Assembly (NCBI GenBank): GCA_019310965.1
Contig: JAFDDG010000030.1
Coordinates: 2,390 to 66,389 of the forward strand
Direction: 5' to 3'
Length of the DNA stretch: 64,000 nt
Origin: Deltaproteobacteria bacterium
GTDB taxonomy: Bacteria > Myxococcota_A > UBA9160 > SMWR01
Shown here in pieces: positions 4,601 through 31,952 of the stretch; within the stretch, counting starts at the first letter, position 1; each line of letters opens with the position of its first letter. The translations under genes were made by a program, and so were the position numbers. The notes beneath the pieces were generated by a model, which searched no databases, was not told the origin of the DNA, and saw only the letters and a program-made list of their open reading frames with translations.

Positions 4601-4882
4601 ACCGGAAACGGCGTCGGCGACCAGCGCATCGTTTACGAAGGCGGCGTCGCCACGCGCCTGGATGTCGACACCAACGGCGACCGCAAGCCGGATGCCGCCA
4701 TCAGCTACGACGCTGGCGGCAACGCGACCCATCAGGACGAGGATGCCGACTTCGACGGCGTGATCGATCGGCGCTTCCAGGGCGATCAGCTCGTCGACAT
4801 CCCCGCCGGCACACGCCTCCCCGGAGCGGACTTCGGAGGCCTCGGCTGCGGCAGCTTCCACGGCTTCTGGTGGAAGCGCTAG
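1610..4882 (+). CDS. Secreted, highly acidic tandem-repeat protein with about 38 DxDxDG calcium-loop-like motifs
   Basis: In frame with ORF 1499..4882. TTG at 1610 gives a Sec-type signal, MRTEFLLTVALLVNISSGASA/EK; TTG 1628 is the alternative start. The body repeats E-x-D-x-[ND]-x-D-G-x-x-D followed by an aromatic-x-x-G hairpin about every 24-27 aa. Confidence 0.75.
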   Translation: MRTEFLLTVALLVNISSGASAEKCRTAIELRYDEFENLAEKHVDSNKDCQFDQVVYYSDGKATHAEIDSNFDGRIDTWTFFEADGKTVGRQEFDISGDGKKDRWIAHRAGKPASQLDDKDADGKADSTLYYKDGVPHHMEEDTDLDGQTDRWVDYRGGEVAVIEDDTNADGKADVRAEFDPSGAKILERQDTTHDGNFDIAIHYREGQKVRLEEDTKGKGRPDVVTHFDGEQIARKEADTTGDGHFDSIAYFEKGIERRQTRDEDGDGKLELVIYLDKSGAKEREEIDSKQDGQPDLVRFFSRGRRVREEEDQNGDRKADVITTYDDKLPLLREADTNLDGRKDTTIQYQDGKKLRQQEDRNGDSKPDAKYEFDAAEQLVFEELDENYDGYFEVINKYADGKLARRTLASRKTERAERNEFFENGKLARVEIDESGDGKPDLWNFHAPDGALIRQDQDSSGDGKVDTWLELDPETGKERTVRRDRNGDGKPDQWRTNSSTGTTLKLEEDRNGDEKPDRVVFFEAGLPKRFEEDSNGDGRPDVRGELDAAGETLREARDTTGDGQYDVRVAYTGGQRTREERDTRGDGQYDVITDYAGGAPSRQQQDTTGDGQLDSILQFEKGRQSVQTRDTNANGKPDVVLRFDAQERPAREEIDQNDDQKPDLVKLYVEGKLVREERDEDGDGRFERVTAYDGAEVSRSEADMNGDGTADVVAFYAEGRKQRQEEDRNFDGRPDVITLFDDQERAVQIDEDDDLDGRLETVTTFEGGVKVRTDKDRNGDGKSDLTAWYEGDRIVRQEEDTDFDGVVDRRSSGGAKGTTLQEADTDGNGRTDVWIVADAEGNVLERREDRSGNGEADFKAWFKDGKLERVELDATGDGCFETKEWYTKAETLRAKYEDTTGNCKTDLWSYVADGAVVRQGQDTSGNGRPDILIHYTKNGKATAQEVASGGKTPDKKFLLDASGAVKAQCTLDEAGKKLNTRANVDASGTVLEMLTDTTGNGVGDQRIVYEGGVATRLDVDTNGDRKPDAAISYDAGGNATHQDEDADFDGVIDRRFQGDQLVDIPAGTRLPGADFGGLGCGSFHGFWWKR
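1805..4775 (+). repeat. In-frame degenerate coding repeat array (period about 69-81 nt)
   Basis: Motifs such as EEDRNGDGKPD, EADTTGDGHFD and DKDRNGDGKSD recur. I counted about 38 units by eye. Strings like ggcgacggcaagcccgac recur at the nucleotide level. Confidence 0.8.
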
Positions 4883-7258: not shown

Positions 7259-9253
<1,995 letters not shown>

Positions 9254-9258
9254 TCGAT

Positions 9259-9292
9259 GGGGTGGGGGCGCCCTGCGGGGCGCCTCCACCCT
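9259..9292 (+). terminator. Strong GC hairpin after glnK (terminator or attenuator-like, no U tract)
   Basis: ggtgggggcgccc-tgcg-gggcgcctccacc forms a 13-bp stem with one G-U pair and a 4-nt loop. It is followed by cttcc rather than a T run. Confidence 0.45.
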
Positions 9293-9453
9293 TCCACGCT
9301 CCACTTCCCGGCCGGCCTCCCGCCGGCATCCGCTGGCCGTTCGCCACCACCCGCGGCCATGGGCGGCCCATTCGCCTCGCCTGGGCGCCCCGGGCAGCCG
9401 CACGCCGGCACATCCCTTGCTCTCCTGCAGCAGCTCACAGCAGGAGGCTCGGC

Positions 9454-10770
9454 ATGGCAGCCATTCGATCGGTTCTGTGGATCGGCAAGGCACGACACTT
9501 CGCGGCAGACATCGTCGCCGATGCGCCGAGTCTCGATGTCGTCTGGGAGCGCGATGCTGCCGAGGCAGCGCGCAGCAGCGGCGACGGCTTCCACGCCGTC
9601 GTCCTCGAAGCCGAGGACGCCGACCAGGCACTGGCAGCGTTGGCCAGCCTGGTCGCGAACCCGGGAGCACCGGTGCTGGTGCGCATTGCACCCCGTCAGG
9701 CCGAGCGCGCATCCGAGCTGTTGGAGGCCGGCGCGGCCGACGTGGCGTTGCGTGGGGGACCGAACGAGGAGAGCGACCTGCTCGCGCGCATCGAGCGCCT
9801 GGCGCGGCCCGGCCGGCGCAGCCCCGATCCTCGTATCATCGGAGGCGCGCCGGCCATGCGCCGGGTGCTCGGCCTGGTCGCCGTATCCGCGCGCTCGCGC
9901 ACCACGGTGCTGCTCTCCGGCGAAACGGGAACCGGCAAGGAGGTGGTGGCCCGCGCCATCCACGCCGCCAGCCCGCGGCGCGACGCGGCGTTCATCGCCG
10001 TCAACTGCGCCGCCTTTCCCGACACACTGCTCGAGAGCGAGCTCTTCGGCTACCAGCGCGGCGCGTTCACCGGGGCAGACCGCAACCAGCCGGGTCTCTT
10101 CGAAGCCGCCCACGGCGGCACGCTCTTTCTCGACGAGATCGGAGAGACCTCGGCTCCCTTCCAGGCCAAGCTGCTGCGCGTGCTCCAGGAGCGCGAGGTG
10201 CGTCGCATCGGCGCTGCGCGCAACCAACACGTGGATGTGCGGGTCGTGGCCGCCAGCAATCGGGAGCTGAGACGCGAGGCCAACGAGCAGCGCTTTCGCA
10301 TCGATCTCTACTATCGCCTGGCCGTCTTCCCGATCACGCTGCCTCCGCTGCGGGAACGCCCGGGAGACATCCTGGCCCTGGCGCACCACTTTCTCGCCCG
10401 GCACGGCCCCGACGAGGGACACCGCGAGGCGGCGCTCACGCCAGCAGCCGAACAGCTGCTGCAGGCCCACCGCTGGCCGGGCAATGTGCGCGAGCTCGAG
10501 AACGAAGTGCTGCGCGCGTTGGCCATGACCGAGCCGGGGGAGGCCCTCGCACCGGAGCATTTCTCCGAACGCCTCGGCGCGATTCTCGAGCCCATCGAGA
10601 GTCAAGTCGCGCCGGGCGACACGCTGCGCGAGACCCTCGGCCGCATCGAAGGCTTCCTGATCCGCAAGAACCTCGCGGCGCACGATGGCCAGCGCAGCGC
10701 CACCGCCCGCGCGCTCGGCATCACCCGCGAGGGCCTCTACAAGAAGATGAAGCGGTTCGGGATCGAGTGA
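9454..10770 (+). CDS. Sigma-54-dependent transcriptional activator (NtrC family) with a degenerate receiver-like N-terminus
   Basis: ATG 9454 with a caggagg RBS, in ORF 8851..10770. Walker A is GETGTGKE, and the GAFTGA motif (RGAFTGADR) and [11 protein letters not shown] are present. The C-terminal Fis HTH is [23 protein letters not shown]. Confidence 0.88.
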
Positions 10771-10820: not shown

Positions 10821-11039
10821 ATGAAACGCGCAAATCTTGTGCTTGATGAGGATACCCTCGAAGAGGCAACCCGCCTCTCCGGCGAGAAGACCTACTCGGC
10901 CGCCGTAATGCGCGCGCTCGAAGACTTCGTACGCCGGGCCAAGGCGCGGCAGATCCTCGAGCTTCGAGGCTCGGGCCTGTGGGAGGGAGATCTCCCTGAG
11001 ATGCGCGGAGACAAACGCCGCAAGAAGAAGACGTCGTGA
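10821..11039 (+). CDS. vapB: Type II antitoxin (VapB-like)
   Basis: ATG 10821 in the frame of ORF 9417..11039. The 72-aa product begins MKRANLVLDEDTLEEATRLSGEKTYSAAVMRALEDFVRR. Its stop overlaps the PIN gene start (GTGA). Confidence 0.7.
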   Translation: MKRANLVLDEDTLEEATRLSGEKTYSAAVMRALEDFVRRAKARQILELRGSGLWEGDLPEMRGDKRRKKKTS

Positions 11040-11425
11040 TCCTGGTCGACACCTCGGTCTGGATCGAGGTCTTCCGAGCTCGTCGCCCTCTCGATCTGGA
11101 GGCGAGCGTGGACCTCGACGAGGTCGTGACCTGCCTCCCGATCGTGCAGGAGATTCTCCAGGGATTCCGCGAGGAGAACGCCTACCGAAGAGCCCGCGAC
11201 TCCATGCTCTCGTTTCCGATCGTCGAGTCCCCCCTCGGGAGCGACGTCTTCCTGGACGCCGTCGGTCTCTACCGCGCCGTCCGCCGAAGCGGGAGAACGG
11301 TCCGATCTTCCGTGGACTGCCTCGTCGCGGCCTGCGCGATTCGGCACGACCTCGAAGTGCTGCACCGCGACCGGGATTATGCAGCGCTGGCACGGGTCTC
11401 TGCGCTGCGCCAGCGAACGCCATGA
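11036..11425 (+). CDS. vapC: PIN-domain toxin (VapC-like)
   Basis: ORF 11036..11425. MILVDTSVWIEVF is the PIN N-terminal acidic motif. The later D in DCLVAACAI and HRDRDY match PIN spacing. Confidence 0.8.
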   Translation: MILVDTSVWIEVFRARRPLDLEASVDLDEVVTCLPIVQEILQGFREENAYRRARDSMLSFPIVESPLGSDVFLDAVGLYRAVRRSGRTVRSSVDCLVAACAIRHDLEVLHRDRDYAALARVSALRQRTP

Positions 11426-11505
11426 TCACCGCCTCACCGGCTCGCCCCTAGAATGCCGAGCCGTCGCCCCGGACGGGCTGACCCCCCACACATCACCATA
11501 CTTGA

Positions 11506-11526
11506 TGCTGGTATCATTGCTGGTAT
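11506..11526 (+). promoter_or_regulatory. Direct repeat TGCTGGTAT x2 (candidate promoter/operator of the second TA pair)
   Basis: cttgaTGCTGGTATcatTGCTGGTATtcaac lies 18-38 nt upstream of ATG 11544. It is locally AT-richer than the flanks. Confidence 0.35.
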
Positions 11527-11543
11527 TCAACTAGGCTGTCGGC

Positions 11544-11747
11544 ATGGCGGAGAAGCGCAAGATCACCCTGGAGGTGCCGGCAGACCTGCTGGAACGCGCT
11601 CTCGCCTCGTCGGGCGAAGGCATCACGCAGACGGTGCGGCAGGGGTTGAAGCTGGTCGCCGCCGGACGCGCCTACGAGGAGCTGCGGCGGCTGCGCGGCA
11701 AAGTGAAGCTCGGCATCGACCTGGAAGCCCTGCGCGAGGACCGGTGA
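11544..11747 (+). CDS. Type II antitoxin (second pair)
   Basis: ORF 11544..11747, 67 aa, beginning MAEKRKITLEVPADLLERAL. Its stop overlaps the downstream PIN gene start. Confidence 0.6.
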   Translation: MAEKRKITLEVPADLLERALASSGEGITQTVRQGLKLVAAGRAYEELRRLRGKVKLGIDLEALREDR

Positions 11748-12127
11748 TCGCGGTCGACACCAGCTCCTGGATCGCCTTCTTCTCCGATCGCGACTCGCCG
11801 GGCGACGACACGGCACTCGTGGAGAGCGCGCTCGCAGACCACCAGGCTTGCTTGCCTCCGGTCGTCCTGACCGAGTTGCTGAGTGATCCGAAGCTCCCGC
11901 GCGCACTCGCCTCGCTCTTCCTGCAGCTCCCGCTCCTCGAAAGCGAGCCGGGCTTCTGGGAACGCGCCGGACGCTTGCGAGCCAAGCTGATCACGCGACG
12001 CCGCCGGGCCCGTCTGGCGGACACCCTCATCGCGCAGAGCTGCCTGGATCACGGCGTCCGTCTCGTGACCCGAGACGACGACTTCCGTCATTACGCTCGC
12101 CTCGGGGGCCTGCGACTCGCCCTTTGA
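11744..12127 (+). CDS. vapC: PIN-domain toxin (VapC-like, second pair)
   Basis: GTG 11744 in the frame of ORF 11453..12127. Recognisable strings are VIAVDTSSWIAFF, LPPVVLTELLS, ADTLIAQSCL and VTRDDDF. Confidence 0.78.
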   Translation: MIAVDTSSWIAFFSDRDSPGDDTALVESALADHQACLPPVVLTELLSDPKLPRALASLFLQLPLLESEPGFWERAGRLRAKLITRRRRARLADTLIAQSCLDHGVRLVTRDDDFRHYARLGGLRLAL

Positions 12128-12223
12128 AGAGGGCGAACGAGGGTTGCGCTCTCATCGCAAGGGGAAGGATCCAGCACGCACTGCCCGGGGCTGCTCGGCC
12201 TCGAACGCGATTTCGAATCAGGG

Positions 12224-13117
12224 TCAGCCGAGCGCCTTCAGTGCGATCTCTCCGAGTAGCTCGACCCGCTCGGGGTTGTGACCGTTCACGGGGAGATCCA
12301 CGGTGATTCCGTCCAGTCCCAGGCTAACGGCCTCGGCGATGCGCTCTCCGACCGTGTCCACATCGCCGAAGATCAGCACATTGCGAGCCATCTCCCGGGT
12401 CGCCCCATCCCAGCCCTTGACCTGCGCAATGGCCTCGAGGTCGGCCTCGAGCTCCTCCAGCGTCGGGGCCACGGCGACCATCAGGAGCTTCGTCACCGCG
12501 ATCTCCGAGCGGTCGCGTCCGAGTCGGTCGCAGTGCTCTGCAAGAACCTCCAGCTTGCGCGGAATGTCCTTCACCTCGCCCAGCAGGTTCGATTCGTCCG
12601 CATACTGCGCGACCATGCGCAGCGTCTTCTTCTCGCCCTGGCCGCCGATCATGATCGGAATCTTCGAGAGCGGCGCGGGGGAGTTCACTGCGTCGACGGC
12701 GGTGTAGTGCTTCCCGTGGAGAGTGGGCTGCTCTCCGCACAGCATCGGCACGATGATATGGAGCGCCTCCTCGAGCTTCTCGAAGCGTTCCGTGAAGGTC
12801 CCGAACTCGAAGCCCAGGGCGAGGTGCTCCGCTTCGAACCAGCCGGCACCGATGCCGAGCGTCGCGCGGCCGTGCGAGACGTGATCGAGGGTCGTGAGGG
12901 TCTTCGCGAGCAGGCCGGGGTTCCGGTAGGTATTGCCCGTGACCAGGGCCGAGAGCCGGACCTTCTCGGTGTGTTGCGCGATCGCCGAGAGCATCGAATA
13001 GCACTCGAACATCGGCTCCTCGGGCGCGCCGATGATGGGCAGCTGATAGAAGTGGTCCATCAGCATCACCCGGTCGTAGCCCGCGGCCTCTCGGTCCTCG
13101 GACGCAGTCGGTCCCAC
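12224..13117 (-). CDS. Luciferase-like monooxygenase (LLM) family oxidoreductase, probably F420- or flavin-dependent; N-terminus looks short
   Basis: ORF 12224..13117. Strings MDHFYQLP, RLSALVTGNTYRNPGLLAK, GRATLGIGAGWFEAEH and IPIMIGGQGEKKTLR are typical of LLM class oxidoreductases. Confidence 0.7.
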   Translation of the reverse strand: MGPTASEDREAAGYDRVMLMDHFYQLPIIGAPEEPMFECYSMLSAIAQHTEKVRLSALVTGNTYRNPGLLAKTLTTLDHVSHGRATLGIGAGWFEAEHLALGFEFGTFTERFEKLEEALHIIVPMLCGEQPTLHGKHYTAVDAVNSPAPLSKIPIMIGGQGEKKTLRMVAQYADESNLLGEVKDIPRKLEVLAEHCDRLGRDRSEIAVTKLLMVAVAPTLEELEADLEAIAQVKGWDGATREMARNVLIFGDVDTVGERIAEAVSLGLDGITVDLPVNGHNPERVELLGEIALKALG

Positions 13118-13154
13118 CGAAGGCAGACGAAAGCGGGGGGCCGTCGAGGTCGTT

Positions 13155-13979
13155 CTAGCTGGCAGCGGCGGGTGCCGCCTGTCTCGCGTTGCGGCATTCC
13201 GTGCAGTGGTAGTCCGGCCGCTCCGCCTCCTTCTCGCTCGGGGTGAGCCGCGTCGCGAACAGGATGTCCATGAAGGCCGTGAAGAAGCCGAAGTTGTGCT
13301 CCGGGCTGCTCGAGTGGTGCTCGTTGTGGTGCCAGGCGGAGACCAGGAAGCGGCTGTGCGGCGAAGGCATCCAGGGCGGATCGAAGCCGGCGTGGAGATA
13401 GATTCCGTAGATGAAGTTCAGCGACGCGAAGGTCCCGATCAGAGCCACGTCCCATATCGGGAAGAGAAAGGGAATCCAGAGGATCGGAGATGCCTTGATG
13501 AACATATCAACCGGGTGATCGGCCATCACGCCGAAGGGCGTCGGGTTCCCGTAGCGATGGTGCTGGCCGTGAACCTTCCGGAGCAGAGCGTTGCGGTGGC
13601 AGACCCAGTGGAAGGCCCACTCGAAGACCTCCATCACGAGGAACACGCCGAAGATGCTCAGCGGGATGTACCAGAGCGGGTGATCGGTGGGCGAAGCATA
13701 GAGGCGGTTGTAGCCGTGGTAGTAGCACCAGAAGGCGATCGCGACGGACCCCATCACCATGGACATCGCGAGCACGCCATCGAAAACTTCGCCCCTCACC
13801 TGCGCCGCGGGCGTGGGCTTGAGCTGGGTCTTGAAGCGCAGCGCAGTCTCGGCGTAGGCGGACCGATGCAGCAGAAAGTAGAGGCCGCCGCAAACCAGCA
13901 GGAACCAGGCTACACCGATCGCAGCCAGGGCGGGCCAGAGGAGATAGAAGGGGAGTCCGTCGAAGAGGTCGAGAAGCAT
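13155..13979 (-). CDS. Fatty acid hydroxylase / sterol desaturase superfamily membrane di-iron enzyme
   Basis: ORF 13155..13979. Three histidine boxes are present: HWVCH, HGQHHRYGNP and WHHNEHH. There are several TM helices. Confidence 0.75.
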   Translation of the reverse strand: MLLDLFDGLPFYLLWPALAAIGVAWFLLVCGGLYFLLHRSAYAETALRFKTQLKPTPAAQVRGEVFDGVLAMSMVMGSVAIAFWCYYHGYNRLYASPTDHPLWYIPLSIFGVFLVMEVFEWAFHWVCHRNALLRKVHGQHHRYGNPTPFGVMADHPVDMFIKASPILWIPFLFPIWDVALIGTFASLNFIYGIYLHAGFDPPWMPSPHSRFLVSAWHHNEHHSSSPEHNFGFFTAFMDILFATRLTPSEKEAERPDYHCTECRNARQAAPAAAS

Positions 13980-14051
13980 GTCGGGAGGATAACTGCCCGA
14001 ATGCGGCGAGCAATTCCGTGCGCCGGATGTCGAGCCGTCCCTTCGACTCGC

Positions 14052-14516
14052 TCAGGCGTTCGCATTCCAGTCGGCGATCAGCGTCTCTATCGTGACGTCC
14101 ATCACGGGCTTCATGTCCTCGTCGTACAACTCGTAGAGGATCCCGTCGCTGGCGTGACAGCCAAAGAAGGCGATCCCGCCCTCGTCTCCCCCTCGCTCGA
14201 GGTGCGGCAGTGGCGCATCCACCGTCAGCGCGTAGTCGCCGGCGCATCGCACCTTGGGCTCGGCGCGAGTTCCGTCCGGATGGATGTCCCACAGATGCTG
14301 TTCGCCCTCGAACACGAGGACGGTCGTGGTCGCGATGTGTCGATGGACCGGGCAATGACCGCCGTCGCCCTCCCACCGCACCACCATGTCGAGGGTGCCG
14401 GCGGCCAGGTCGTGACCGAGGATCGTGTATTCGTGGCTCACCTTGTAGGAAAGCCCGGGGTCGCCCGTCACCTTCCGCCACTTGTGACGCGCGGGATCGA
14501 AGAAGCTCTGGGCCAT
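14052..14516 (-). CDS. Cupin-domain protein
   Basis: ATG 14516 with an aaggaggg RBS, inside ORF 14052..14561. HCPVHRHIATTTVLVFEGEQ resembles a cupin metal motif. Confidence 0.5.
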   Translation of the reverse strand: MAQSFFDPARHKWRKVTGDPGLSYKVSHEYTILGHDLAAGTLDMVVRWEGDGGHCPVHRHIATTTVLVFEGEQHLWDIHPDGTRAEPKVRCAGDYALTVDAPLPHLERGGDEGGIAFFGCHASDGILYELYDEDMKPVMDVTIETLIADWNANA

Positions 14517-14618
14517 TGCAGGACCCTCCTTGGTTGAATCGTCCGTTTCAGTCACGAGCACCGAGCGCCTTCGCTCCGTTGTCGACCGGGGGCGGCGAAG
14601 CGCTGCGGCGAACGGGCT

Positions 14619-16451
14619 CTAGCGCAGCTCCAGCCCCTTCATCCCGCCGCCGGCGCGAACCTCCTCGAGAATCTCCGCGAACTCCCCTGGCCCGCCGAAG
14701 AAGAAGCCGTTCTGGCTGCTCTCCGGCCCAGGCTGGCCTTCGTTGTTGTAGTAGCTGGGTGTGCAGGTCGTCTGGAAATCGCCCGTGGTGTTGGAAAGAC
14801 GGATCACCGCGTCGACCCACTCGGCCTCGGCTTCGGCCGTGACCTCGAGCGACTGGATGCCCTGCTCGATGGCACGCTTGATGATGAAGCCGATGTGCGT
14901 GCCCGACTCACCGAGCCCGTGCGTAAAGTTCACGGTGAAGCCAGACTGCACGATGCTCACGATGAAGAAGCAGTTGGGAAAGCCGTGCGCCTGCATGCCG
15001 TGCAGCGTGCGCACGCCGTCGGCCCACTTGTCCGTCAATTTCTGACCGCCCCGCCCGACGGTCTCGTAGCCGGCCCGCCGCGGGTAGCTGGTCCCGACCT
15101 CGAAGCCGCTGGCGTAGATCAGGCAGTCGAGCTCGTACTCCCGTCCGTCGACGACCACGCCCTTCTCCGTCACCCGCTCCACGCCCTTGCCCTGGGTTTC
15201 CACGAGCGTGACGTTGTCGCGGTTGAAGGTCGGGAGGTACTCGTTGTGGAAGCACGGGCGCTTGCAGAACTGACGGTAGTAGGGCTTGAGGGCTTCCGCC
15301 GTCTCCGGGTCGTCCACCAGGGAGTCCACGCGGGCGCGGATCTGCTCCATCTTCTCGAAGTCAGCCAGCTCCATGATCTTCGCCAGGGCTTCCGGCGACG
15401 TGTCGGAGTCGCCCCCCTGCTGAAACTCGGCGAGGAGCTTGCGAATGACGTCGGTCCAGCCGTCGTTCACCAGATCCTCTGCCTGGAAGCCGCCGGCGGT
15501 GAGGAGCTTGAAGTTCTCCATTCGTTCCCGGTGCCAACCGGGCTGCAGGCTCTTCGCCCACTCCGGGTCGGTGAGATCGTTTTTCTTCACGTCGATCGAC
15601 GACGGCGTGCGCTGGAACACGTAGAGGTGTTCTGCCGCCTCGCCCACGTGCGGCACGCATTGCACCGCCGTTGCGCCGGTGCCGATGATGCCGACGCGCT
15701 TGCCCTTCAGCCCCGTCAGGTTCCCATCGGAATCACCGCCTGTGTAGTCGTAGTCCCAGCGGCTGGCGTGGAAGGCGTGGCCCTTGAAATCCTCGATGCC
15801 GGGGATGCCGGGCAGCTTCGGTTGGTTGAGGACGCCAATCGCCATGCACACGAAGTGGGCCTTCATTCGATCACCACGATCCGTCGTGATGATCCAGCGG
15901 GAGGCATCCTCGTCCCAGCGCACCTCCGTCACCTTGGTCTGGAAGCACGTATTCCGGTAGAGATCGTACTTCTTCGCGATCCTCTGACAGTGCTCGAGGA
16001 TCTCGGCCCCGGTGACGTACTTCTGCTTTGGCATGTAGTCGGTTTCTTCGAGCAGTGGCAAATAGATGTAGGACTCGATGTCGCAGGCCACGCCGGGGTA
16101 GCGGTTCCAGTACCAGGTGCCGCCGAAATCGCCGGCACTGTCGATGAAGCGGATGTCCTCGACGCCTTGATCGCGCAGCTCCGCGCCGACCAGCAGTCCG
16201 CCGAATCCGCCCCCGATCACCGCCACCTCGACCTCGTCCGTCAGCGGCTCGCGGCTGATGCTGGACTCGGCGTGGGGATCTTCCACGAAGTGCGCGTAGG
16301 CACCCTTGACCTCGATATACTGCTCGTTGGCATCATTGCGCAGGCGCTTTTCCCGCTCCTCGCGGTACTTCTCGCGCAGCGCGTCCGCGTCGTATCCGGG
16401 CCCGCCCGCCTCGGAAGCGGTCTGCGTAGAATCGTCGTTCTCGGTTGCCAT
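14619..16451 (-). CDS. Type I Baeyer-Villiger monooxygenase (FAD/NADPH)
   Basis: ORF 14619..16451. GGGFGG is the FAD-binding motif. The BVMO fingerprint FxGxxxHxxxWD is present as FKGHAFHASRWD. The second Rossmann motif is IGTGATAVQ. Confidence 0.85.
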   Translation of the reverse strand: MATENDDSTQTASEAGGPGYDADALREKYREEREKRLRNDANEQYIEVKGAYAHFVEDPHAESSISREPLTDEVEVAVIGGGFGGLLVGAELRDQGVEDIRFIDSAGDFGGTWYWNRYPGVACDIESYIYLPLLEETDYMPKQKYVTGAEILEHCQRIAKKYDLYRNTCFQTKVTEVRWDEDASRWIITTDRGDRMKAHFVCMAIGVLNQPKLPGIPGIEDFKGHAFHASRWDYDYTGGDSDGNLTGLKGKRVGIIGTGATAVQCVPHVGEAAEHLYVFQRTPSSIDVKKNDLTDPEWAKSLQPGWHRERMENFKLLTAGGFQAEDLVNDGWTDVIRKLLAEFQQGGDSDTSPEALAKIMELADFEKMEQIRARVDSLVDDPETAEALKPYYRQFCKRPCFHNEYLPTFNRDNVTLVETQGKGVERVTEKGVVVDGREYELDCLIYASGFEVGTSYPRRAGYETVGRGGQKLTDKWADGVRTLHGMQAHGFPNCFFIVSIVQSGFTVNFTHGLGESGTHIGFIIKRAIEQGIQSLEVTAEAEAEWVDAVIRLSNTTGDFQTTCTPSYYNNEGQPGPESSQNGFFFGGPGEFAEILEEVRAGGGMKGLELR

Positions 16452-16502
16452 GCCCTCGCCTTCTTAGTTTGTCGCCGGTCGGGCGACAATACCACGAACG
16501 GC

Positions 16503-18158
16503 TCAGAGATCTTCGATGCGGATGACGTGGTTCGGGCAGTAGCGGGCCGCCAGCTCGGCCTTCTTGCGCAGCTGCTTGCGCGGTGTCTCGTCCTTCACGT
16601 GCACCCGCTCGTCGGGACCCAGCTCGAAGATCTCGGGCGCCTCGCCGGTGCAGACCGCGTGCCCCTGACACAGGTCGGCATCCACGCAGACCCGGAACGG
16701 CAGCGCCGCCTCCTCTGCCTGCTCGCGCTGCTGAACTCGCTCCGCACTCGCAGCGCTGACCGCGCCGGCCTTGCGCGGACGGTGACGCACACGACACGGC
16801 TGCTTCAGGTGCACGACCATCTTCGAATGGTCGTCGACGTAGCTCTCGGAGGGCTGGGCGAACTCGAACTCGAAACGTCGCAGCATCAGGCTGAAGATGC
16901 CCTTCATCTGCATCAGCGCAAAAGCCGAGCCGATGCACTTGTGCCGGCCGCCTCCGAATGAAATCCAGGACCACGGGTTGCGCGCATCCTCGCGGCGATC
17001 GTCGCTGTAGCGCTCTGGATCGAATCGATCCGGCTCGGGAAAGATGTTGGGATCCCGATTGGAGACGGCCGGCGAGACGGCCACCAGGTCGCCGGCCTTG
17101 ACCGTGAAGTTCTTGAAGTGGAAGTCGTGCATCACCTTTCGCATCAGGATGATGAGCGGTGGGTGCATGCGCAGCGTCTCCTTGAGCACTCCCTCCAGCA
17201 GCGGGATCTCGCGCAGCGACTGGAAGCTCACCTGACGCCCATCGGCGTAGATGGCGTCGAGCTCTTCGACGACGCGCGCCATGACCTCCGGGTTTCGCAG
17301 CAGCTCGATGAGGGCCCAAGAGGCGGCGCCCTGGCTGGTGTGGTGGCCGGCCAACATCATCCCGATGATCATGCCGGTGATCTCGGAGCGGCTGTACCGC
17401 TTGTCGCCATTCTCGTTGATGAGTGAGTCCATGGCCTGCAGGAGATCCCGGCAGCGCCTGCCCTCCTCCTCGCGCGTGTCGAGGATCTCGGTGATCAGCT
17501 CGACGAGCTTGATGCGTGCCGCGTCGCGGGCGTGGAAGGAGGGGATGTCCATGTAGGGGTCGACGTAGGCGTAGGCGTCCGTGCCGCGCTCGAGATCTTG
17601 AAAGGCCGTCGCGAACTCGCTGCCCTTCTGGGCCAGGTCGTCGCGGAATTCCTGTCCGATCAGGGTGGCGGTCGAGGTGTAGGTGGTGAGCTCCCCGAAG
17701 AACTCGAGCAGGTCGAAATCATCCGAGCCCTGCAGGCGTTCGCACATCGCTTCGGTTTCGGCATTGATCACATCGGCGTGACGCCGCATGTATTCGTCGC
17801 GCAGGGCACGCGTGCGGATCGCATTCTTGCGCTGCTCTACCGGGAGGTCGAAGATGACGCCCGGGCCGAAGATCGGCTTCATGAAGGGATAGGCCGCCCC
17901 CTGGTCGAGCTGCTCGTCCGGCGCACGGAAGAACAGCTCCTGCGCCTCGGGCCCGTAGAGCAGGGTGATGTGGGTGCCCGCCAGGTTGATCTCGCCGACC
18001 TCGCCGCACTCGTTGCGCACCCGCCAGAAGAGCTCGACCGGCGCGGTGCGGAATTCTTCCAGGTGACCCACGTCGGGCTGCTCGTTCGAGAGACGCGGCG
18101 GAGCCTGTCCCCCGGGATGGCTGGCATGGGCGGCGCTGGCGACTGTCTTCTCGGGCAT
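16503..18158 (-). CDS. cyp51: CYP51-like cytochrome P450 fused to a C-terminal 3Fe-4S-type ferredoxin
   Basis: ATG 18158 with a GGAGGAG RBS, inside ORF 16503..18188. The product is collinear with M. tuberculosis CYP51 as I recall it: AGHHTSQGAASWALIEL, LKETLRMHPPLIILMR, FGGGRHKCIGSAF, DHSKMVVHLKQP. The tail carries CQGHAVC...YCP. Confidence 0.8.
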   Translation of the reverse strand: MPEKTVASAAHASHPGGQAPPRLSNEQPDVGHLEEFRTAPVELFWRVRNECGEVGEINLAGTHITLLYGPEAQELFFRAPDEQLDQGAAYPFMKPIFGPGVIFDLPVEQRKNAIRTRALRDEYMRRHADVINAETEAMCERLQGSDDFDLLEFFGELTTYTSTATLIGQEFRDDLAQKGSEFATAFQDLERGTDAYAYVDPYMDIPSFHARDAARIKLVELITEILDTREEEGRRCRDLLQAMDSLINENGDKRYSRSEITGMIIGMMLAGHHTSQGAASWALIELLRNPEVMARVVEELDAIYADGRQVSFQSLREIPLLEGVLKETLRMHPPLIILMRKVMHDFHFKNFTVKAGDLVAVSPAVSNRDPNIFPEPDRFDPERYSDDRREDARNPWSWISFGGGRHKCIGSAFALMQMKGIFSLMLRRFEFEFAQPSESYVDDHSKMVVHLKQPCRVRHRPRKAGAVSAASAERVQQREQAEEAALPFRVCVDADLCQGHAVCTGEAPEIFELGPDERVHVKDETPRKQLRKKAELAARYCPNHVIRIEDL

Positions 18159-18207
18159 CGGCTCTCCTCCTCTGGGATGGGAATCCATGCTATACCATTT
18201 ATCTGCG

Positions 18208-18220
18208 TTGTAAATTGTAA
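18208..18220. promoter_or_regulatory. AT-rich TTGTAA direct repeat in the cyp51/tetR divergent intergenic region (candidate operator/promoter)
   Basis: ttgtaaattgtaa sits in a 139-nt intergenic region. It is flanked at a distance by GGGATGGG (18174..18181) and its complement CCCATCCC (18246..18253). Confidence 0.3.
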
Positions 18221-18297
18221 TTTTGCCCCGTGGACCTGGAGAAGCCCCATCCCCTCTGAGATGGCCCCCGGGACTCGGAGCAGAGCGCGAGGCAGGA

Positions 18298-18936
18298 ATG
18301 AGCGAGCGGCTGGAGATTCCCCGGACTCAGCGGAAGCGGCGCAGCCACGCCGAGCGGAGCGCCGAGACCCAGAGCCGGATCAAGCGCGCCGTGGTCGAGG
18401 CCATTGCCGACCTCGGCTTCCACCGGACCACGGCGGCAGAGATCAGCCGCCGTGCGGGCGTGAGCTGGGGAGCGGCGCAGCATCATTTCGGCGACAAGGA
18501 CGGCATCCTGATCGCGGTGCTCGTCGACTCGTTCAACCGCTTCGCCGAGCGGCTCGCGAGCATCGCCGTCGAGGGCGCCCCGCTCGAAGAACGCGTGGCA
18601 ACCTTCGTCGACGCCGCGTGGGAGCACTTCGCAAGTCCCCACTACCGCTGCACGTTCGAGATCCTGCTCAACATGCCGTCTCCCGATTGGGCTTCGCGAG
18701 AGCTTCCGCTGCGGGATGCGACCCTCGACGCCTGGCGCAGCATCTGGCATCGCTTCTTCGGCGATGCGGGCCTGACGCCGCGCAAGACCGTCGCCGTGCA
18801 GTACTACACGATCTCGGTCCTGTCCGGCCTCGCGGCCATGAAGCGGTTCGAGGGCCCCACGGCGGAACGCCATCGCATCGAGCTCGGCCTCCTCGAGGAC
18901 ACTCTCGTTCGCGAGCTCGGTCGCGGGAGCGATTGA
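18298..18936 (+). CDS. TetR-family transcriptional regulator
   Basis: ATG 18298 in ORF 18223..18936. The N-terminal HTH is TQSRIKRAVVEAIADLGFHRTTAAEISRRAGVSWGAAQHHFGDKDGIL. Confidence 0.85.
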   Translation: MSERLEIPRTQRKRRSHAERSAETQSRIKRAVVEAIADLGFHRTTAAEISRRAGVSWGAAQHHFGDKDGILIAVLVDSFNRFAERLASIAVEGAPLEERVATFVDAAWEHFASPHYRCTFEILLNMPSPDWASRELPLRDATLDAWRSIWHRFFGDAGLTPRKTVAVQYYTISVLSGLAAMKRFEGPTAERHRIELGLLEDTLVRELGRGSD

Positions 18937-19035
18937 GCGTCAGCGACGAGCCGCCGAGTAGCCCCGCACGGCCTTCGCAGGCGCCACCGGCTTGCCCGCA
19001 GCACGCAGCGGTGCGCGCCACCGACCGCCGTGCCC

Positions 19036-19848
19036 TCAGGCGAGGCCCGAGAAGTCGATCTGGCCCGTGGTCATGAAGGCGCTGAAGCCCATGTCCACGT
19101 TCAGGTTCACACCGTTGACGTAACGCGCCGCATCCGCGCCGAGGAAGACCAGCGTGGTGGCGATGTCGGTGGGCGTGGCGATCGTCCCTCCGCACTGCTC
19201 GATGGTCCAGCTCATCGTCTTCTCGGTCATGGTCTCGTTGAACTCCGGGAGCAACGGCGTATCGATCGGCGCCGGGCACACGCTATTCGTGCGCACGCCG
19301 CGGGCAAGCGTCTGCTTGGCGCTCTTCAACGTGTAGACCTGCACGCACTCCTTCGAGAACCCATAGCCGTCGCCGACGAGATCCTTGTGCGAATCGCACC
19401 AGGCGAGCAGCTCCGCGCGATCTTCGATGGCAATCGCCTCCATCACCTCCGCCAGGTGGCCGGGCCACTGGCCGCCGGCGATCGACGCCGTGTTCACGAT
19501 GGCGCCTCCCTGCGGAATCTGCGGCAACAAGGCCTCGGACAGCTGACGCAGACCCAGCCAGTTCACGCTCATCACATCGGCGACCGGACGCGTCGCAGAG
19601 ATGCCGGCGTTGTTGAACAGCACGTCCACCCGGCCGTCGATCTGCTCGGCTGCAGCCGCCACGGCCGCCGCATCGCCCATATTGGTCTCGATGAACGAGC
19701 TGATGGGCCCGTCGGGGCGCTTGATGTCGAGGGCGATGACTTCCGCCGCACCGAGCTGCTGCAATACCTCGAGGCACGCCGCGCCCACGCCCGAGAAGGC
19801 TCCGGTGATGACGACGCGCTTGCCCGAATAGTCGAAGGGGTGGCTCAT
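19036..19848 (-). CDS. Short-chain dehydrogenase/reductase, 3-alpha-hydroxysteroid dehydrogenase / coniferyl-alcohol dehydrogenase-like subgroup
   Basis: ATG 19848 (alternative 19860) in ORF 19036..20139. Strings are KRVVITGAFSGVGAA and NNAG. There is a long insertion between ASIAG and the catalytic YGFSK, as I recall for the HsdA/CalA type. Confidence 0.7.
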   Translation of the reverse strand: MSHPFDYSGKRVVITGAFSGVGAACLEVLQQLGAAEVIALDIKRPDGPISSFIETNMGDAAAVAAAAEQIDGRVDVLFNNAGISATRPVADVMSVNWLGLRQLSEALLPQIPQGGAIVNTASIAGGQWPGHLAEVMEAIAIEDRAELLAWCDSHKDLVGDGYGFSKECVQVYTLKSAKQTLARGVRTNSVCPAPIDTPLLPEFNETMTEKTMSWTIEQCGGTIATPTDIATTLVFLGADAARYVNGVNLNVDMGFSAFMTTGQIDFSGLA

Positions 19849-28251: not shown

Positions 28252-30546
28252 TCAGCGAAGCGGTGTCGCGCCCCCGAGCATCGAGCGCGCAACGCCGTCG
28301 ATCTCGGCCGGCGCCATCACCTCGAGCTGCGGCAGAGCCGTGCCTGCGGGCACGCCAGCGGTGCGCGCGACGACGAGCCCAGCGCCGGGCGGCGTGCCCC
28401 CGCGGTGCACGACAAGACGTCTGGAGCGCAACTCCAGGACGAGCTGCCGGCCATCGACGAGTCGCGCCTGCGACAGACAGGTGATGCGGGGGATCGCTTC
28501 GCCGGAGGCCAGTGTGTAGCGGAGTGCAACCGACTGGCCCGCCGCCAGCCGCCACGAAGCGCGCAGCGCAACGCGGCGGCGCGGGAAGCGCAGCAGATGC
28601 TCGAGCTCGACGGCGCCCTGCCCCACCGCGCGCACCTCCAGCTCCACCTCGAGCCACTCGCCGGGCGCCAACGCCACCGGTGTGCCGTGGACGAGCTGCC
28701 AGCCGCGCCCGTCGACCACGAAGCGCGCGTCTCCGACGAGGGCCAGGGCCAGCTCCGGCTCGTCGGTGCCCGGCCCGCTCGCCGCCGCGACGTCCAGCGC
28801 GAGAGTCTCGAGCTCGGGACGCCGCGCCAGGGACCGCAACGTCGGCGCGAACATGCGACCGCTGAAGGCATCGAAGCCCGCGCAGTCAGCACCACCCTCG
28901 CTGCAATGCAAGAGGTAGCCGTCCGGCGCGAGTGCGCTCAGCGTGCGCAGGTTCACGTTGCCGAAGAACAGGTGGCGCCCGACGGCATAGCGGCGAAACA
29001 GGCTGCGCCCGTGCAAGCCATCGGCGGCAGCGGCCAACCCCAGGTAGTCGAGCACCGAGAGGGCGACGTCCGACTGCGCGTGGGGAACGTCGATCCGCTC
29101 GCGCTCACGCTCGGGCAACAACGCCGCGAGAAAGCCCCAGTTCTGGGTCAACTCCGCCGTCACGGTGTCCGACGTTCCGGGCCACAGGCCGGCCGCCTCG
29201 TCCGAGGTAATCAACACGAGCGTATCGTCACGCACACCGGCGCCTTCGAGCCAGACCAGGAACTCGCCGATGGCGCCATCGAGGCTGTCGAAGGCCGCTC
29301 CCGCGCCACCTCCGCCACCAGCCGTCGCCGGCACGACGTAGGGATGGTGCGTGCCGACGCTGAGCAGCGTCAGGAACCAGGGATCCGGCTCCGCGCGGAG
29401 CGCCTCGATCAGGCGCGTGGCACCCGCGAAGAACGAGCGATCGTCGACCCCCCAGAGCGTGCGCAGGGTGTAGTGCTCGAACCAGTCGGTGCCCAGCACC
29501 TGCTGGAAGCCAGCACGGGGCAAGAACTGATCCTTGGCCATGAAGGACAGGGGCGCCGCTTGCAGGTAGAGCGTCCGGTAGCCGCGTTCGCGCAGCCGTT
29601 CCGGCAGACAGCGCCGCCCGAGACCGCGCGAAGCTACCGTCATCTTGGGCAGACCCTGGATGAGACTCGGCATCTCGCCGCACAAGAGCGCATAGAGGCC
29701 GCGATCCGTGCGCCGGTTGTGATTCAGGAAAGTGGCGTAGCCGACGTTCTCGGCAAAGATCGCGTCGAGTCGCGGCAGGGGATGCGCGGCGCGCCGTCCG
29801 TGCGCCCGCGCCGCGGTCGCGAGGTCCGCTCCGGAGACCCCTTCCAGCACCACGAGCAGGACGTTGCGGCCCTCGCTGCCCAGCGCGAAGCGCGGCTCGC
29901 CGGAGAGATCGCCCAGCAGAGCGGGGTGGCGGGCGGCCAACCCACCGTCCTCCGCACCCGGAGCCGTGCGGCGGTTCGCGAGCCAGACCGCGTTCTGCGA
30001 GATCGCGTTGACCTGTCGCCAGGTCGCGATGCGCGCATCGCTCGCCGGGAGCGACGCGCCGCCGAGAAAGAGGAGGCTTGCGCCAACGATCGCCGCGACC
30101 GCGCGCGGACCCAGACCCGAGAACCCGTACCACGCCGCAACCCCACCGGCGCCCGTCAACGCGACCCATAGCAACGGACGCATTGGCGCCAGCACCGAGC
30201 CGCCAAAGAAGGTGGCGTCGCCGAGAAAGCCGGCATCTGCGAAGTTCACGACCGCGCGCAGCGCCCGCACCGTCTCGTAGTTCGCATAGTGAACACCCGT
30301 CAGCAGCACCACGCCCAGCAATGCAACGCTCCGGAGCCGCCGCGCCGGCCACCACAGGGCGCCGAGACACAGACCGGCCACGCCGACATCCGCCGCCAGG
30401 CCGCGCAAGTCGCCCCAGCCTGGCTCCGCTTCCACGTCGATGAGAGCGATGCCGCGCAACACCAGCGGAGCGGCCAGCAACGCCAGCCATGCGAGCGCCG
30501 CGGTTCCAACCGGCCGGTGCCCCTCGCGTGCCTGCCGTGCTGCCAC
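28252..30546 (-). CDS. LtaS/OpgB-like membrane phosphotransferase (alkaline-phosphatase superfamily) with about 270-aa C-terminal extension
   Basis: ORF 28252..30546, 764 aa. N-terminal TM bundle, then NVLLVVLEGVSG, NHNRRTDRGLYALLCGE and LSVGTHHPYVVP. It is a paralog of 38831..41164. Confidence 0.7.
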   Translation of the reverse strand: MAARQAREGHRPVGTAALAWLALLAAPLVLRGIALIDVEAEPGWGDLRGLAADVGVAGLCLGALWWPARRLRSVALLGVVLLTGVHYANYETVRALRAVVNFADAGFLGDATFFGGSVLAPMRPLLWVALTGAGGVAAWYGFSGLGPRAVAAIVGASLLFLGGASLPASDARIATWRQVNAISQNAVWLANRRTAPGAEDGGLAARHPALLGDLSGEPRFALGSEGRNVLLVVLEGVSGADLATAARAHGRRAAHPLPRLDAIFAENVGYATFLNHNRRTDRGLYALLCGEMPSLIQGLPKMTVASRGLGRRCLPERLRERGYRTLYLQAAPLSFMAKDQFLPRAGFQQVLGTDWFEHYTLRTLWGVDDRSFFAGATRLIEALRAEPDPWFLTLLSVGTHHPYVVPATAGGGGGAGAAFDSLDGAIGEFLVWLEGAGVRDDTLVLITSDEAAGLWPGTSDTVTAELTQNWGFLAALLPERERERIDVPHAQSDVALSVLDYLGLAAAADGLHGRSLFRRYAVGRHLFFGNVNLRTLSALAPDGYLLHCSEGGADCAGFDAFSGRMFAPTLRSLARRPELETLALDVAAASGPGTDEPELALALVGDARFVVDGRGWQLVHGTPVALAPGEWLEVELEVRAVGQGAVELEHLLRFPRRRVALRASWRLAAGQSVALRYTLASGEAIPRITCLSQARLVDGRQLVLELRSRRLVVHRGGTPPGAGLVVARTAGVPAGTALPQLEVMAPAEIDGVARSMLGGATPLR

Positions 30547-30569: not shown

Positions 30570-31952
30570 TCAGCGCACGTACCCCAGCTCCCGCAGCGAA
30601 CGTTCGACGTCCGGGTCCATCTCGCCGCGCGGCGGCGGCAGCTCGGTGAGCGCAGTGCCGTGCTCCTCCAGGAGCGCGTTCAGTCTGCGCTCCAGCGCCT
30701 TCGCGACTTCGGGCTCGTCCGCCACGAGATTGCGCGTCTCGCGGGGATCGGCGACGACATCGTAGAGCTCGTGTCGCCCGTCGGAGCCCCAGATGAGCTT
30801 GTGCGGCCCGACCCGCAGCGAGCGGATGAGGCGGAGATACGGCGCCAGCGACGCGCCTTTGCGCGCCTCTTCGGGGAAGTAGGCGATGAACTGCTTCGGG
30901 TAGTAGTACTCGCCCACCACCGGGCGGTCCTGCGGCAGCGCCGCGGCCAGGAGATCGCTGCCCACGCCCGGGGCGCTCACCCCCGCGGCTGCAGCAACCG
31001 TCGCAAACACGTCGGTCAGCTGCACCGGCTCACTCCGACGCGTCCCGGCGCCCGCCCCACCGGGCGGGCGAATCGCCAGCGGTACCCGCAGCGTCGAGTC
31101 GTAGAGAACGAACGAGTGCCCCTGGTGGTCATTGTCGCCCAGGTTCTCGCCGTGATCCGAAACGGCAACGACGAGGCTCGCATCTTCGAGCCCGCGATCG
31201 CGCAGCATCCGCAACAGATTGCCCAAAGCCTGATCGACGGTCGCCACCTCGGCGTGATACAGGCGCTGGCGCAGCGGCAGGAGGCTCTCGTCGATCGAGT
31301 CGCGGTCGATGTACCAGTCAATCACACCGAAGTTCGCCTCTCCGCGCTCGGCCTTCGAGACGTCCGCCGAGACGAAACGCGCCTGCATCGACGCTGGCGC
31401 GTCGTAGGGCCAGTGCGGTTCGATGTAATTCACGAAGAGGAAGAACGGTCGCTCGTCCTGGCGCGCATCCAACCAGAGCTCAATGGCCTTGTTCGTGCGC
31501 GCCGCCTGCCCCGGTCCAGGCAGACGCCAGGCCTCCGCGACGTTCTCGAAACCCTGCGTCAGGTTCGCGCGATCTCCGACCCATGCGTTGTTCGAGAATG
31601 CGACGGTCTCGTAACCGGCGTCACCGAGCAGCTCGGCCAACGTCTCGTGTTCGCCGGCCAGATACTGACTCACCTGATTGGCACCGTGAGTCATCGGATA
31701 CAGGCCCGTGAAGAGCGACGCATGGGAGGGCACCGTCCAGCTCGAGGTGGCGAACGCATTCTCGAAGAGCACGCCGCTCGCCGCCAGGGCGTCGAAGTGC
31801 GGAGTCTTCGCCTCGGCGTAGCCGTAGGCCGAGAAGTGATCCGCACGCGTCGTGTCGAACACCACCATCACGACGTGAGGCCGCGCCGGAGCCCCACTGC
31901 AGCCCAGCGCCGCAGCCAGCCCCAGGACACAGGCCGCTTCGCCCCAGCGCAT
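30570..31952 (-). CDS. Sulfatase-fold lipoprotein with non-canonical T-x-P-x-H active-site motif
   Basis: ATG 31952 in ORF 30570..33467. The lipobox is LAAALGC. Recognisable strings are HVVMVVFDTTRADH, SSWTVPSHASLFTG and AVSDHGENLG. Confidence 0.75.
   Translation of the reverse strand: MRWGEAACVLGLAAALGCSGAPARPHVVMVVFDTTRADHFSAYGYAEAKTPHFDALAASGVLFENAFATSSWTVPSHASLFTGLYPMTHGANQVSQYLAGEHETLAELLGDAGYETVAFSNNAWVGDRANLTQGFENVAEAWRLPGPGQAARTNKAIELWLDARQDERPFFLFVNYIEPHWPYDAPASMQARFVSADVSKAERGEANFGVIDWYIDRDSIDESLLPLRQRLYHAEVATVDQALGNLLRMLRDRGLEDASLVVAVSDHGENLGDNDHQGHSFVLYDSTLRVPLAIRPPGGAGAGTRRSEPVQLTDVFATVAAAAGVSAPGVGSDLLAAALPQDRPVVGEYYYPKQFIAYFPEEARKGASLAPYLRLIRSLRVGPHKLIWGSDGRHELYDVVADPRETRNLVADEPEVAKALERRLNALLEEHGTALTELPPPRGEMDPDVERSLRELGYVR

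Follow-up and report, generated by a model that had tools for sequence, protein, structure and literature searches.

At positions 16503..18158 on the minus strand of a 64,000-nucleotide (nt) stretch of contig JAFDDG010000030.1 (the window, with a G+C content of about 68%), there is a gene in which a cytochrome P450 of the sterol 14α-demethylase family, CYP51, is joined to a ferredoxin. The two parts are encoded by a single uninterrupted frame (551 codons plus stop) with the ferredoxin at the C-terminus, and the product is a soluble CYP51-ferredoxin fusion (CYP51fx) of the type of MCCYP51FX from Methylococcus capsulatus. An earlier, sequence-only reading of this DNA had proposed a P450-ferredoxin open reading frame (ORF) of 551 amino acids (aa) at these coordinates, and this ORF is real: Pfam finds both domains (p450 and Fer4_15/Fer4_13) in it, its best matches in the PDB are CYP51s, and all the peptide strings that had been quoted occur in its translation. 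The coordinates stand as they were given, with the strand corrected to minus. The identical protein is already public as MBW2268856.1 and MBW2361143.1, named "cytochrome P450 [Deltaproteobacteria bacterium]" and derived from an uncultured metagenome-assembled genome (MAG) rather than from an actinobacterium, and its JGI cluster-mates carry the annotation "sterol 14-demethylase".

The longest ORF over the gene runs from 18188 to 16503 on the minus strand and would encode 561 aa, while the version of 551 aa uses the ATG at 18158. The latter start is preceded by a GGAGGAG Shine-Dalgarno sequence (about 18162-18170), and the alternative ATG at 18188 falls within a -10 hexamer, which is part of the one sigma-70-like promoter match that a scan of 11400-19200 gave. 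Since an independent public gene call, made on a contig with the identical protein, also gives 551 aa, these observations together indicate that the shorter start is the correct one.

Several observations place the P450 domain (residues about 20-462; 16773..18101, minus strand) among the CYP51s; the evidence comprises alignments to 7tef and 1e9x, residues invariant in 64 fusions and an AlphaFold2 model. Pfam p450 matches residues 26-452 (E=1e-70), and the best sequence matches obtained with phmmer in the PDB are CYP51B1 of Mycobacterium marinum (7tef; 525 bits, E=1e-156), CYP51B1 of Mycobacterium tuberculosis (Mtb; 1e9x; 510 bits, E=7e-152) and, in third place, the fusion of M. capsulatus (6mcw; 483 bits), the known precedent that the sequence-only reading had named, which aligns over residues 13-548 and so includes the tail. 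The eukaryotic CYP51s in the PDB reach 152-235 bits, and the top P450 from outside the family reaches 113 bits, as against 152-525 for CYP51s. In P450 nomenclature, more than 40% aa identity to a named CYP51 defines the family and 55% marks the subfamily line; the domain is 54.3% identical to CYP51B1 of both Mtb and M. marinum over 442 aligned residues, which bears out the family assignment and leaves it just below the subfamily line.

The predicted structure agrees with this placement. An AlphaFold2 model of the fusion, built from 64 homologues, reproduces both domains (pLDDT 84.4, pTM 0.85), and the best 50 structural matches found with Foldseek are, without exception, CYP51s: TM scores are 0.93-0.96 with the Mtb enzyme (52-54% identity) and 0.87-0.94 with the P450 domain of M. 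capsulatus (44-45% identity), and identity to eukaryotic CYP51s is 25-31%. The B'-helix/B'C-loop and I-helix HT(S) signatures described for CYP51 (PMC7947880) are also present, the former as the B'/BC-loop AYPFMKPIFGPGVIFD, which holds Y90, F92 and F103, and the latter as AGHHTS, with H272, H273 and T274. Additionally, the heme-thiolate cysteine loop FGGGRHKCIG, with C408, fits FxxGxHxCxG. Y90, F92, F97, G98, V101, F103, D104, H272, H273, T274 and C408 are invariant across 64 fusion proteins. When one segment of the protein was aligned with the lanosterol-bound CYP51 of M. capsulatus (identities being those given by Foldseek), Y198 corresponded to Y186, E190 to E178, and H272/H273 to H259/H260. 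In that lanosterol-bound form, Y186 has been observed to make an extra hydrogen bond to the sterol 3-OH (PMC9519919). On all features that can be tested in silico, the P450 domain is a CYP51; the identity of the gene product as a CYP51fx is hardly in doubt, and sterol 14-demethylation is, judging from these conserved features, its likely chemistry.

An Ala/Glu/Gln-rich linker (residues about 463-488; 16695..16772, minus strand) fills the interval from where the CYP51 alignment ends to where the Fer4 match begins, and a helix is predicted in it at 469-484 with lower confidence. Measured in this way the linker has about 25 aa, rather than the 35 or so suggested by the sequence-only reading. It is followed by a 3Fe-4S-type ferredoxin domain (residues 489-551; 16506..16694, minus strand), where Pfam reports Fer4_15 at 490-548 (2e-9) and Fer4_13 (1e-7). 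The CxxHxxC...CP pattern recognised in the sequence-only reading is indeed there, as C497-QG-H500-AV-C503 ... C541-P542, in a domain of 63 aa instead of about 65, and C497, H500, C503, C541 and P542 are invariant in 64 sequences. Searched alone, the tail finds as its best PDB match the ferredoxin domain of 6mcw (E=5e-12, 30/61 core positions identical), followed by 8AMP, its best free-standing match (39% identical). The latter is the Mtb ferredoxin (Fdx) Rv0763c, a 3Fe-4S protein with the motif CXXHXXC(X)nCP that is a proven redox partner of CYP51B1 (PMC9868604). The domain is modelled at a pLDDT of about 80-87, and its motif and predicted fold are consistent with a ferredoxin that would bind an Fe-S cluster and reduce the fused heme. 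For the CYP51fx class, linkers of 20-30 aa, ferredoxins of 64-82 aa and three invariant cysteines have been described (PMC7947880); the linker of the window protein fits this range and its ferredoxin is one residue below it.

The fusion architecture is not new, dozens of such fusions having been published and hundreds being present in metagenomes. The class was reportedly defined in 2002, when Jackson et al. described MCCYP51FX of M. capsulatus, which was later crystallised. The notion that bacterial CYP51s are rare, repeated in the sequence-only reading, is outdated: Lamb et al. (2020; PMC7947880) counted CYP51 genes in >1,000 bacteria of nine phyla and >50 natural CYP51fx fusions, whose hosts are Proteobacteria (including Myxococcales), Actinobacteria and Spirochaetes, and it has been stated elsewhere that CYP51-ferredoxin fusions "are not rare" (PMC9868604). 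In a collection of 5.8 billion proteins, 117 of the 120 relatives listed (54-91% identical, about 550 aa) carry the same order of P450 and Fer4. At species level, the closest genomes are uncultured MAGs with the labels Deltaproteobacteria, Myxococcota or Proteobacteria (86-71% identical), for whose names no literature was found, and beyond them there are relatives in Spirochaetaceae, Binatia and many Actinomycetota.

A neighbour-joining tree of P450 domains (Kimura distances, 100 bootstraps, midpoint-rooted) puts the window protein in a subclade of seven members, which sits on a long branch and is nested within a clade of 26 fused proteins from Gram-negative MAGs; both groups have 100% bootstrap. 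The other main branch is an Actinomycetota clade that contains Mtb. Lee, Giner and Welander (2026; PMC13277303) have described a Cyp51 clade in which all members are fused or adjacent to their own ferredoxin, with representatives in Methylococcaceae, other Proteobacteria, uncultured Myxococcota and Mycobacteriales, and the placement obtained here matches this ferredoxin-linked clade as far as the sequences can tell. The closest matches of the P450 are all CYP51s, and the tree groups it with ferredoxin-linked relatives. The sequence-only reading was right in treating the Mtb ferredoxin as a separate neighbouring gene, the two genes being adjacent and separate in most Mycobacteriales.

Divergently from the fusion gene there is a TetR-family regulator (18298..18936, plus strand; Pfam TetR_N), to which the public gene call gives 212 aa, with 18223 as another possible start of the ORF. 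This pairing is retained among relatives: a TetR gene of 65-83% identity adjoins CYP51fx in the related loci L001-L007, and one of 48-69% identity lies within about 0.1-4.6 kb of a fused CYP51fx in L011, L013, L015-18, L021 and L033. The spacer between the two genes is divergent and GC-rich except for an AT-rich element, TTTACAACGCAGATAAATGGTAT (18187..18215, minus strand), which emerged from the alignment of the intergenic regions of relatives. There, the conserved element reads TTTACAAyGCA...AAATTGTAT, with the inverted half-sites TACAAT/ATTGTA. The promoter match mentioned above, TTTACA-16-TAGCAT, overlaps it. In 3.5 Mb of fetched DNA, the pattern of the element has 12 matches (both strands counted), all of them 50-100 nt upstream of CYP51fx genes of the subclade. 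A repeat search found no exact inverted repeat in the TetR-CYP51 spacer of the window, as the palindrome is imperfect and visible only through the alignment of relatives. We infer that the element is a putative TetR operator overlapping the promoter, which would imply ligand-inducible expression. Comparison of the window TetR with the actinobacterial (Rv0767c-like) TetR by hhalign gave 96% probability at 23% identity, which we regard as uninformative on orthology, since a similar score is to be expected from any pair of TetR families.

Four genes follow CYP51fx in the same orientation, the gaps within the five-gene set being 37-72 nt, and this spacing makes it probable that CYP51fx heads a five-gene operon. 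The nearest of them, 51 nt downstream, encodes a 610-aa Baeyer-Villiger monooxygenase (BVMO) of type I (14619..16451, minus strand) with FMO-like/Pyr_redox matches. Its best NCBIfam model is of PtlE type (856 bits, below the cutoff of 1100). Its best relative in the PDB is 5mq6 (450 bits), which we take to be the polycyclic-ketone monooxygenase PockeMO, and PAMO, the steroid monooxygenase STMO and CHMO score at most 288 bits. In these respects the enzyme resembles the BVMOs of bulky substrates (PtlE/PntE, PockeMO), and it has been stated that the PntE/PockeMO clade accommodates such substrates (PMC6058054). The next gene (14052..14516, minus strand; ORF of 169 or 154 aa) encodes a metal-binding cupin of 154 aa, for which searches of Pfam and NCBIfam returned no match. 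It was recognised from its AlphaFold2 model (pLDDT 92), which shows a cupin fold with an invariant HxH...E...H set (H58, H60, E72/H74, H105), and 831 homologues make up its family, the 120 listed ones being 71-81% identical.

The other two genes of the set encode a membrane protein with an FA_hydroxylase domain (13155..13979, minus strand; PF04116), named "sterol desaturase family protein" by NCBI and for which no relative was found in the PDB, and, as the last co-oriented gene, an F420-dependent luciferase-like (LLM) oxidoreductase (12224..13117, minus strand; Pfam Bac_luciferase). The latter matches TIGR03560, the Rv1855c family, with 266 bits (above the cutoff of 231); a match to an F420-dependent family deserves mention in a MAG labelled Deltaproteobacteria. 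On the other side, convergent with the TetR gene, there is a short-chain dehydrogenase/reductase (SDR) related to 3alpha-hydroxysteroid dehydrogenase/carbonyl reductase (19036..19848, minus strand), which matches NCBIfam PRK12428 with 255.6 bits (above the cutoff of 242) and whose best PDB relatives, 1fjh and 2dkn, score 70.5 and 64.8 bits, with residues 12-261 of 270 aligned. We regard it as only loosely associated with the CYP51fx unit. A second assembly with an identical CYP51fx (L088) has a spacer of 210 nt between the cupin and desaturase genes (14107-14318), compared with 72 nt in the window (13979-14052), and its desaturase-family protein differs slightly from that of the window; these differences suggest that two closely related populations were assembled.

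The BVMO and the cupin also travel together elsewhere. In every context examined (L089-L094), the cupin adjoins a BVMO of about 610 aa, 60-69% identical to that of the window, and a P450. One arrangement of these cassettes is P450-cupin-BVMO-Coq4. Another is TetR-BVMO-cupin-P450-Thiolase_C_1-ChsH2-like-amidohydrolase-LLM-PhyH, where the P450 is closest to CYP125, CYP142 (a steroid C26-monooxygenase) and CYP124. The BVMO and cupin thus look like an undescribed enzyme pair. The gene families of these sister cassettes (CYP125/CYP142/CYP124, thiolase/ChsH2 and a TetR-type regulator) are those of actinobacterial clusters for catabolism of the sterol side chain. Unlike such clusters, the window does not show a complete steroid-degradation pathway (KstD, KshAB, Hsa genes), and the likeness is one of gene families only.

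Around CYP51fx itself, by contrast with the regulator, the downstream genes are not conserved: BVMO, FA_hydroxylase, LLM and SDR genes are not regular neighbours, and TetR alone is, with the exception of a BVMO in L005/L087. In the closest relative (L001, 91% identical), a CYP130/CYP125-like P450, an acyl-CoA dehydrogenase, a thiolase, a ChsH2-like protein, an AMP-ligase and an enoyl-CoA hydratase are encoded nearby. Three BVMO/FMO genes, of which one shares 75% identity with the BVMO of the window, occur in a different arrangement in the L005/L087 locus (86%), which also holds a KshA-like Rieske oxygenase. In L007, a relative of 72% identity, the gene directly after CYP51fx (11685-12206, plus strand) encodes 173 aa that look glyoxalase/VOC-like by eye; as this gene is neither SnoaL nor cupin, the position 3' of CYP51fx is variable in the subclade. 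Neighbouring genes thus vary, while a theme of oxygenases and catabolism of lipid or steroid type recurs.

The genes expected for sterol synthesis were also sought. Pfam detects no oxidosqualene or squalene-hopene cyclase (OSC, SHC), squalene epoxidase or SdmAB-like pair among the ORFs of the window, and no ferredoxin reductase is found among them. A motif scan for OSC/SHC, run without a positive control, gave no cyclase-like ORF, either in the window or in the ±10 kb around the CYP51 gene of 88 related loci. A further gene is expected from the work of Lee et al., who showed that 8,14-Bsr, a member of the NTF2 superfamily, reduces the Δ8,14-diene generated by Cyp51 and that it co-localises and co-evolves with the ferredoxin-linked Cyp51 clade (PMC13277303). 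When all ORFs from 84 related loci and the window were clustered into neighbour families, a SnoaL-like protein of 186 aa (Pfam SnoaL_4 1e-5, Tyr42) was found directly after fused CYP51fx genes, and a SnoaL/NTF2-like gene directly follows the fused or separate ferredoxin in relatives that share as little as 48% identity. Mycobacteriales have it about 200 nt beyond CYP51, the space between being taken up by the separate ferredoxin gene, and actinobacterial loci reproduce the Mtb order TetR-P450-SDR-CYP51-Fdx-SnoaL-ADH. The SnoaL-like gene stands beside most other members of the clade, but within the subclade of the window it is next to CYP51fx only in L006. A search of the six-frame translation of the whole window with the hidden Markov model (HMM) of the 186-aa family, with filters off, found no homologue (best E=2.4), so the co-localisation that characterises the ferredoxin-linked clade is absent here. 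The 169/154-aa ORF was considered as an 8,14-sterol reductase and discarded, as it has no SnoaL-HMM or hhalign match and adopts a cupin fold. As regards the marker residues of Lamb et al. (Table 1), F92 and F103 make the window protein one of F/F type, which has been reported for Actinobacteria and a Spirochaeta fusion, while most of the listed sterol-producing Myxococcales are L/Y or I/Y (PMC7947880).

Two characterised systems are available for comparison. With MCCYP51FX (6mcw, 7snm, 7jj1), the window protein shares the order of domains, the total length of 551 aa, the class of linker, the CxxHxxC...CP ferredoxin and the need for a separate reductase. By contrast, M. capsulatus is a sterol producer with a biosynthetic enzyme, its marker I81 is replaced by F92 in the window, and the window gene is paired with TetR and heads an oxygenase operon, with no gene for sterol synthesis or 8,14-Bsr nearby. 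Mtb CYP51B1 (Rv0764c), the closest solved relative, has the F/F markers, a 3Fe-4S partner of the same family and a TetR in its cluster. Its ferredoxin is a separate gene, fused in the window, and the Mtb gene order given above, in which the SnoaL-like gene is presumably Rv0762c, is absent from the window. No sterol synthesis is known from Mtb, and Lee et al. (2026) have proposed that its enzyme acts on exogenous lanosterol. The window protein also resembles the ferredoxin-linked Cyp51 clade and the published CYP51fx set in its fused ferredoxin and in overlapping taxa (Myxococcota/Deltaproteobacteria, Spirochaetes, Actinomycetota). In the accessible portions of Lamb et al. 2020 (PMC7947880) and Lee et al. 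2026 (PMC13277303), neither the TetR/operator pairing nor the BVMO-cupin link of the window is described.

By analogy with the characterised enzymes of M. tuberculosis and M. capsulatus, the ferredoxin domain would be reduced by an NAD(P)H-ferredoxin reductase that is not linked to it and is encoded outside the window. The domain would then dock for a short time on the P450's proximal face and pass electrons one at a time to the heme, as in the M. capsulatus fusion, which has been described as slow but reliable (PMC9519919). On a 3β-hydroxy sterol, for example lanosterol or a 4-methyl sterol, the P450 would oxygenate the 14α-methyl group three times in succession, releasing formate and leaving a Δ14 double bond. 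The genomic context suggests that these steps would form part of a TetR-controlled, substrate-inducible operon, in which the demethylated product might be handed to the bulky-ketone BVMO, the cupin, the sterol-desaturase-family protein and the F420-dependent oxidoreductase. The substrate, in turn, could be a 14-methyl sterol or triterpenoid taken up from the environment, which the operon would modify or degrade. The Cyp51 clade has been proposed to act on exogenous lanosterol in sterol degraders (Lee et al. 2026, PMC13277303), and this proposal is matched by a gene whose companions are a presumably ligand-responsive repressor and oxygenases of catabolic type, not a cyclase or an epoxidase.

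The set of oxygenase genes looks more like one for sterol breakdown than for synthesis, and the fusion is most likely not a housekeeping enzyme of sterol synthesis. Whether its role is on exogenous sterols is, in our estimation, evenly balanced, and the same even balance applies to identity, chemistry and role taken together. A more specific version, which can be put forward only tentatively, is that in an uncultured marine deltaproteobacterial lineage CYP51fx was uncoupled from 8,14-Bsr and became the entry enzyme of a TetR-gated cassette for the degradation or remodelling of environmental 14-methyl sterols (lanosterol, cycloartenol, 4-methyl sterols).

A number of observations weigh against a role on exogenous sterols. 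The function of the protein is deduced from its relatives and its context, and co-transcription is judged from spacing alone. As the downstream genes vary among the closest relatives, the link within the operon may be recent and even incidental. Additionally, thiolase, ChsH2-like and CYP125-like genes also occur in the catabolism of non-steroid lipids. Bacterial sterol genes are often dispersed in the genome, so that the absence of OSC from 64 kb says little; OSC, squalene monooxygenase (SQMO), SdmAB, 8,14-Bsr and the reductase could all lie beyond the 64 kb of genome examined. The missing 8,14-Bsr, moreover, leaves the fate of the Δ8,14-diene product unexplained, and the same clade includes true biosynthetic enzymes (M. 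capsulatus, Sandaracinus).

A rival view is that the fusion serves as C-14 demethylase in de novo sterol synthesis, as in M. capsulatus and sterol-producing Myxococcota, with genes for cyclase, epoxidase and reductase located elsewhere in the genome, the neighbouring oxygenases being unrelated or serving to tailor the cell's own sterols. Such a role would agree with the fused architecture and the ferredoxin-linked clade shared with the physiologically validated M. capsulatus enzyme (PMC13277303), with intact sterol-contact residues, with a "sterol desaturase family" gene in the operon and with the 8,14-Bsr-like SnoaL gene retained in L006. The relatives are labelled Myxococcota/Deltaproteobacteria, and deep sterol synthesis is attributed to this phylum (PMC12004948). 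However, OSC and SQMO are absent from the window, and OSC/SHC also from the 88 related loci; there is no 8,14-Bsr homologue in 64 kb; the association with a TetR and an operator-like element points to ligand induction; the BVMO/cupin cassettes elsewhere sit with CYP125/142-like P450s and thiolase/ChsH2-like genes; and the F/F markers are like those of non-producers. On balance, we consider a biosynthetic role unlikely, though it must be taken seriously.

It has also been suggested that CYP51s kept in non-producers may have gained new lipid functions (Lamb et al., PMC7947880). The enzyme might thus have been neofunctionalised, as oat CYP51H10 was, to act on a non-sterol polycyclic or methyl-branched lipid, with the operon enzymes processing its product. 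The long branch of the subclade, the loss of the adjacent 8,14-Bsr and operon partners that are generic oxygenases for bulky ketones and lipids would be in line with this idea. By contrast, the catalytic and sterol-binding positions (among them the Tyr that binds the sterol 3-OH, the proton relay HT(S) and the B'-loop signature) are invariant across 64 fusions, and Mtb CYP51B1, 54% identical, demethylates sterols in vitro (PMC7947880, PMC9868604), which makes a change of substrate class quite improbable. Finally, an assembly chimera or a frameshift could have joined separate CYP51 and ferredoxin genes. These genes are adjacent and separate in most Mycobacteriales, stop-codon loss has been proposed as the evolutionary origin of the fusion (PMC9868604), and the MAG holds at least one frameshifted gene, AcrB. 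Nevertheless, two assemblies encode an identical product of 551 aa, the 117 of 120 listed relatives with this length and domain order come from many independent samples, and linker and ferredoxin are in frame, conserved and confidently modelled, so that an artefact is effectively refuted.

The gene adds a data point to the long-standing question of what CYP51s are for in bacteria without known sterol synthesis. If a TetR-gated role on environmental 14-methyl sterols is correct, the operon would represent a dedicated and so far undescribed bacterial route for sterol precursors. It would also suggest that microbes turn over 14-methyl sterols in marine sediments, with a bearing on the preservation of sterol biomarkers. 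In practical terms, the locus would offer a compact, partly self-sufficient demethylase together with a defined putative operator/repressor pair.

Other features of the window can be mentioned briefly. Just past the end of the putative operon there are PIN-domain (VapC-like) toxin genes with VapB-type antitoxins (11036-11425, plus strand, within about 10.7-11.9 kb), and two PIN genes are called in L088. As is typical of high-GC DNA, long spurious ORFs run antisense or out of frame to real genes (14895-16961, plus strand; 9046-10683 and 16333-17319, minus strand), of which the one at 9046-10683 (545 aa) overlaps a sigma-54 activator, a plus-strand gene call of the sister contig. Three long ORFs have coding-like GC3 and no Pfam match at E<=0.001 (1499-4882, plus, 1127 aa; 51461-53584, minus, 707 aa; 41184-42572, plus, 462 aa). 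The AcrB/RND transporter gene is split over two frames (53718-57321, minus strand), with ACR_tran positions 4-586 in 54388-57321 and 695-1018 in 53718-54797, and represents a frameshift pseudogene or else an error of assembly; upstream of it there is a gene for an HlyD-type adaptor (56931-58310). Two large sulfatase-domain proteins (28252-30546 and 38831-41389, both minus strand) are clustered with two PMT_2-type glycosyltransferases (31952-33397, minus; 33674-35035, plus), in what may be a region for modification of the cell envelope.

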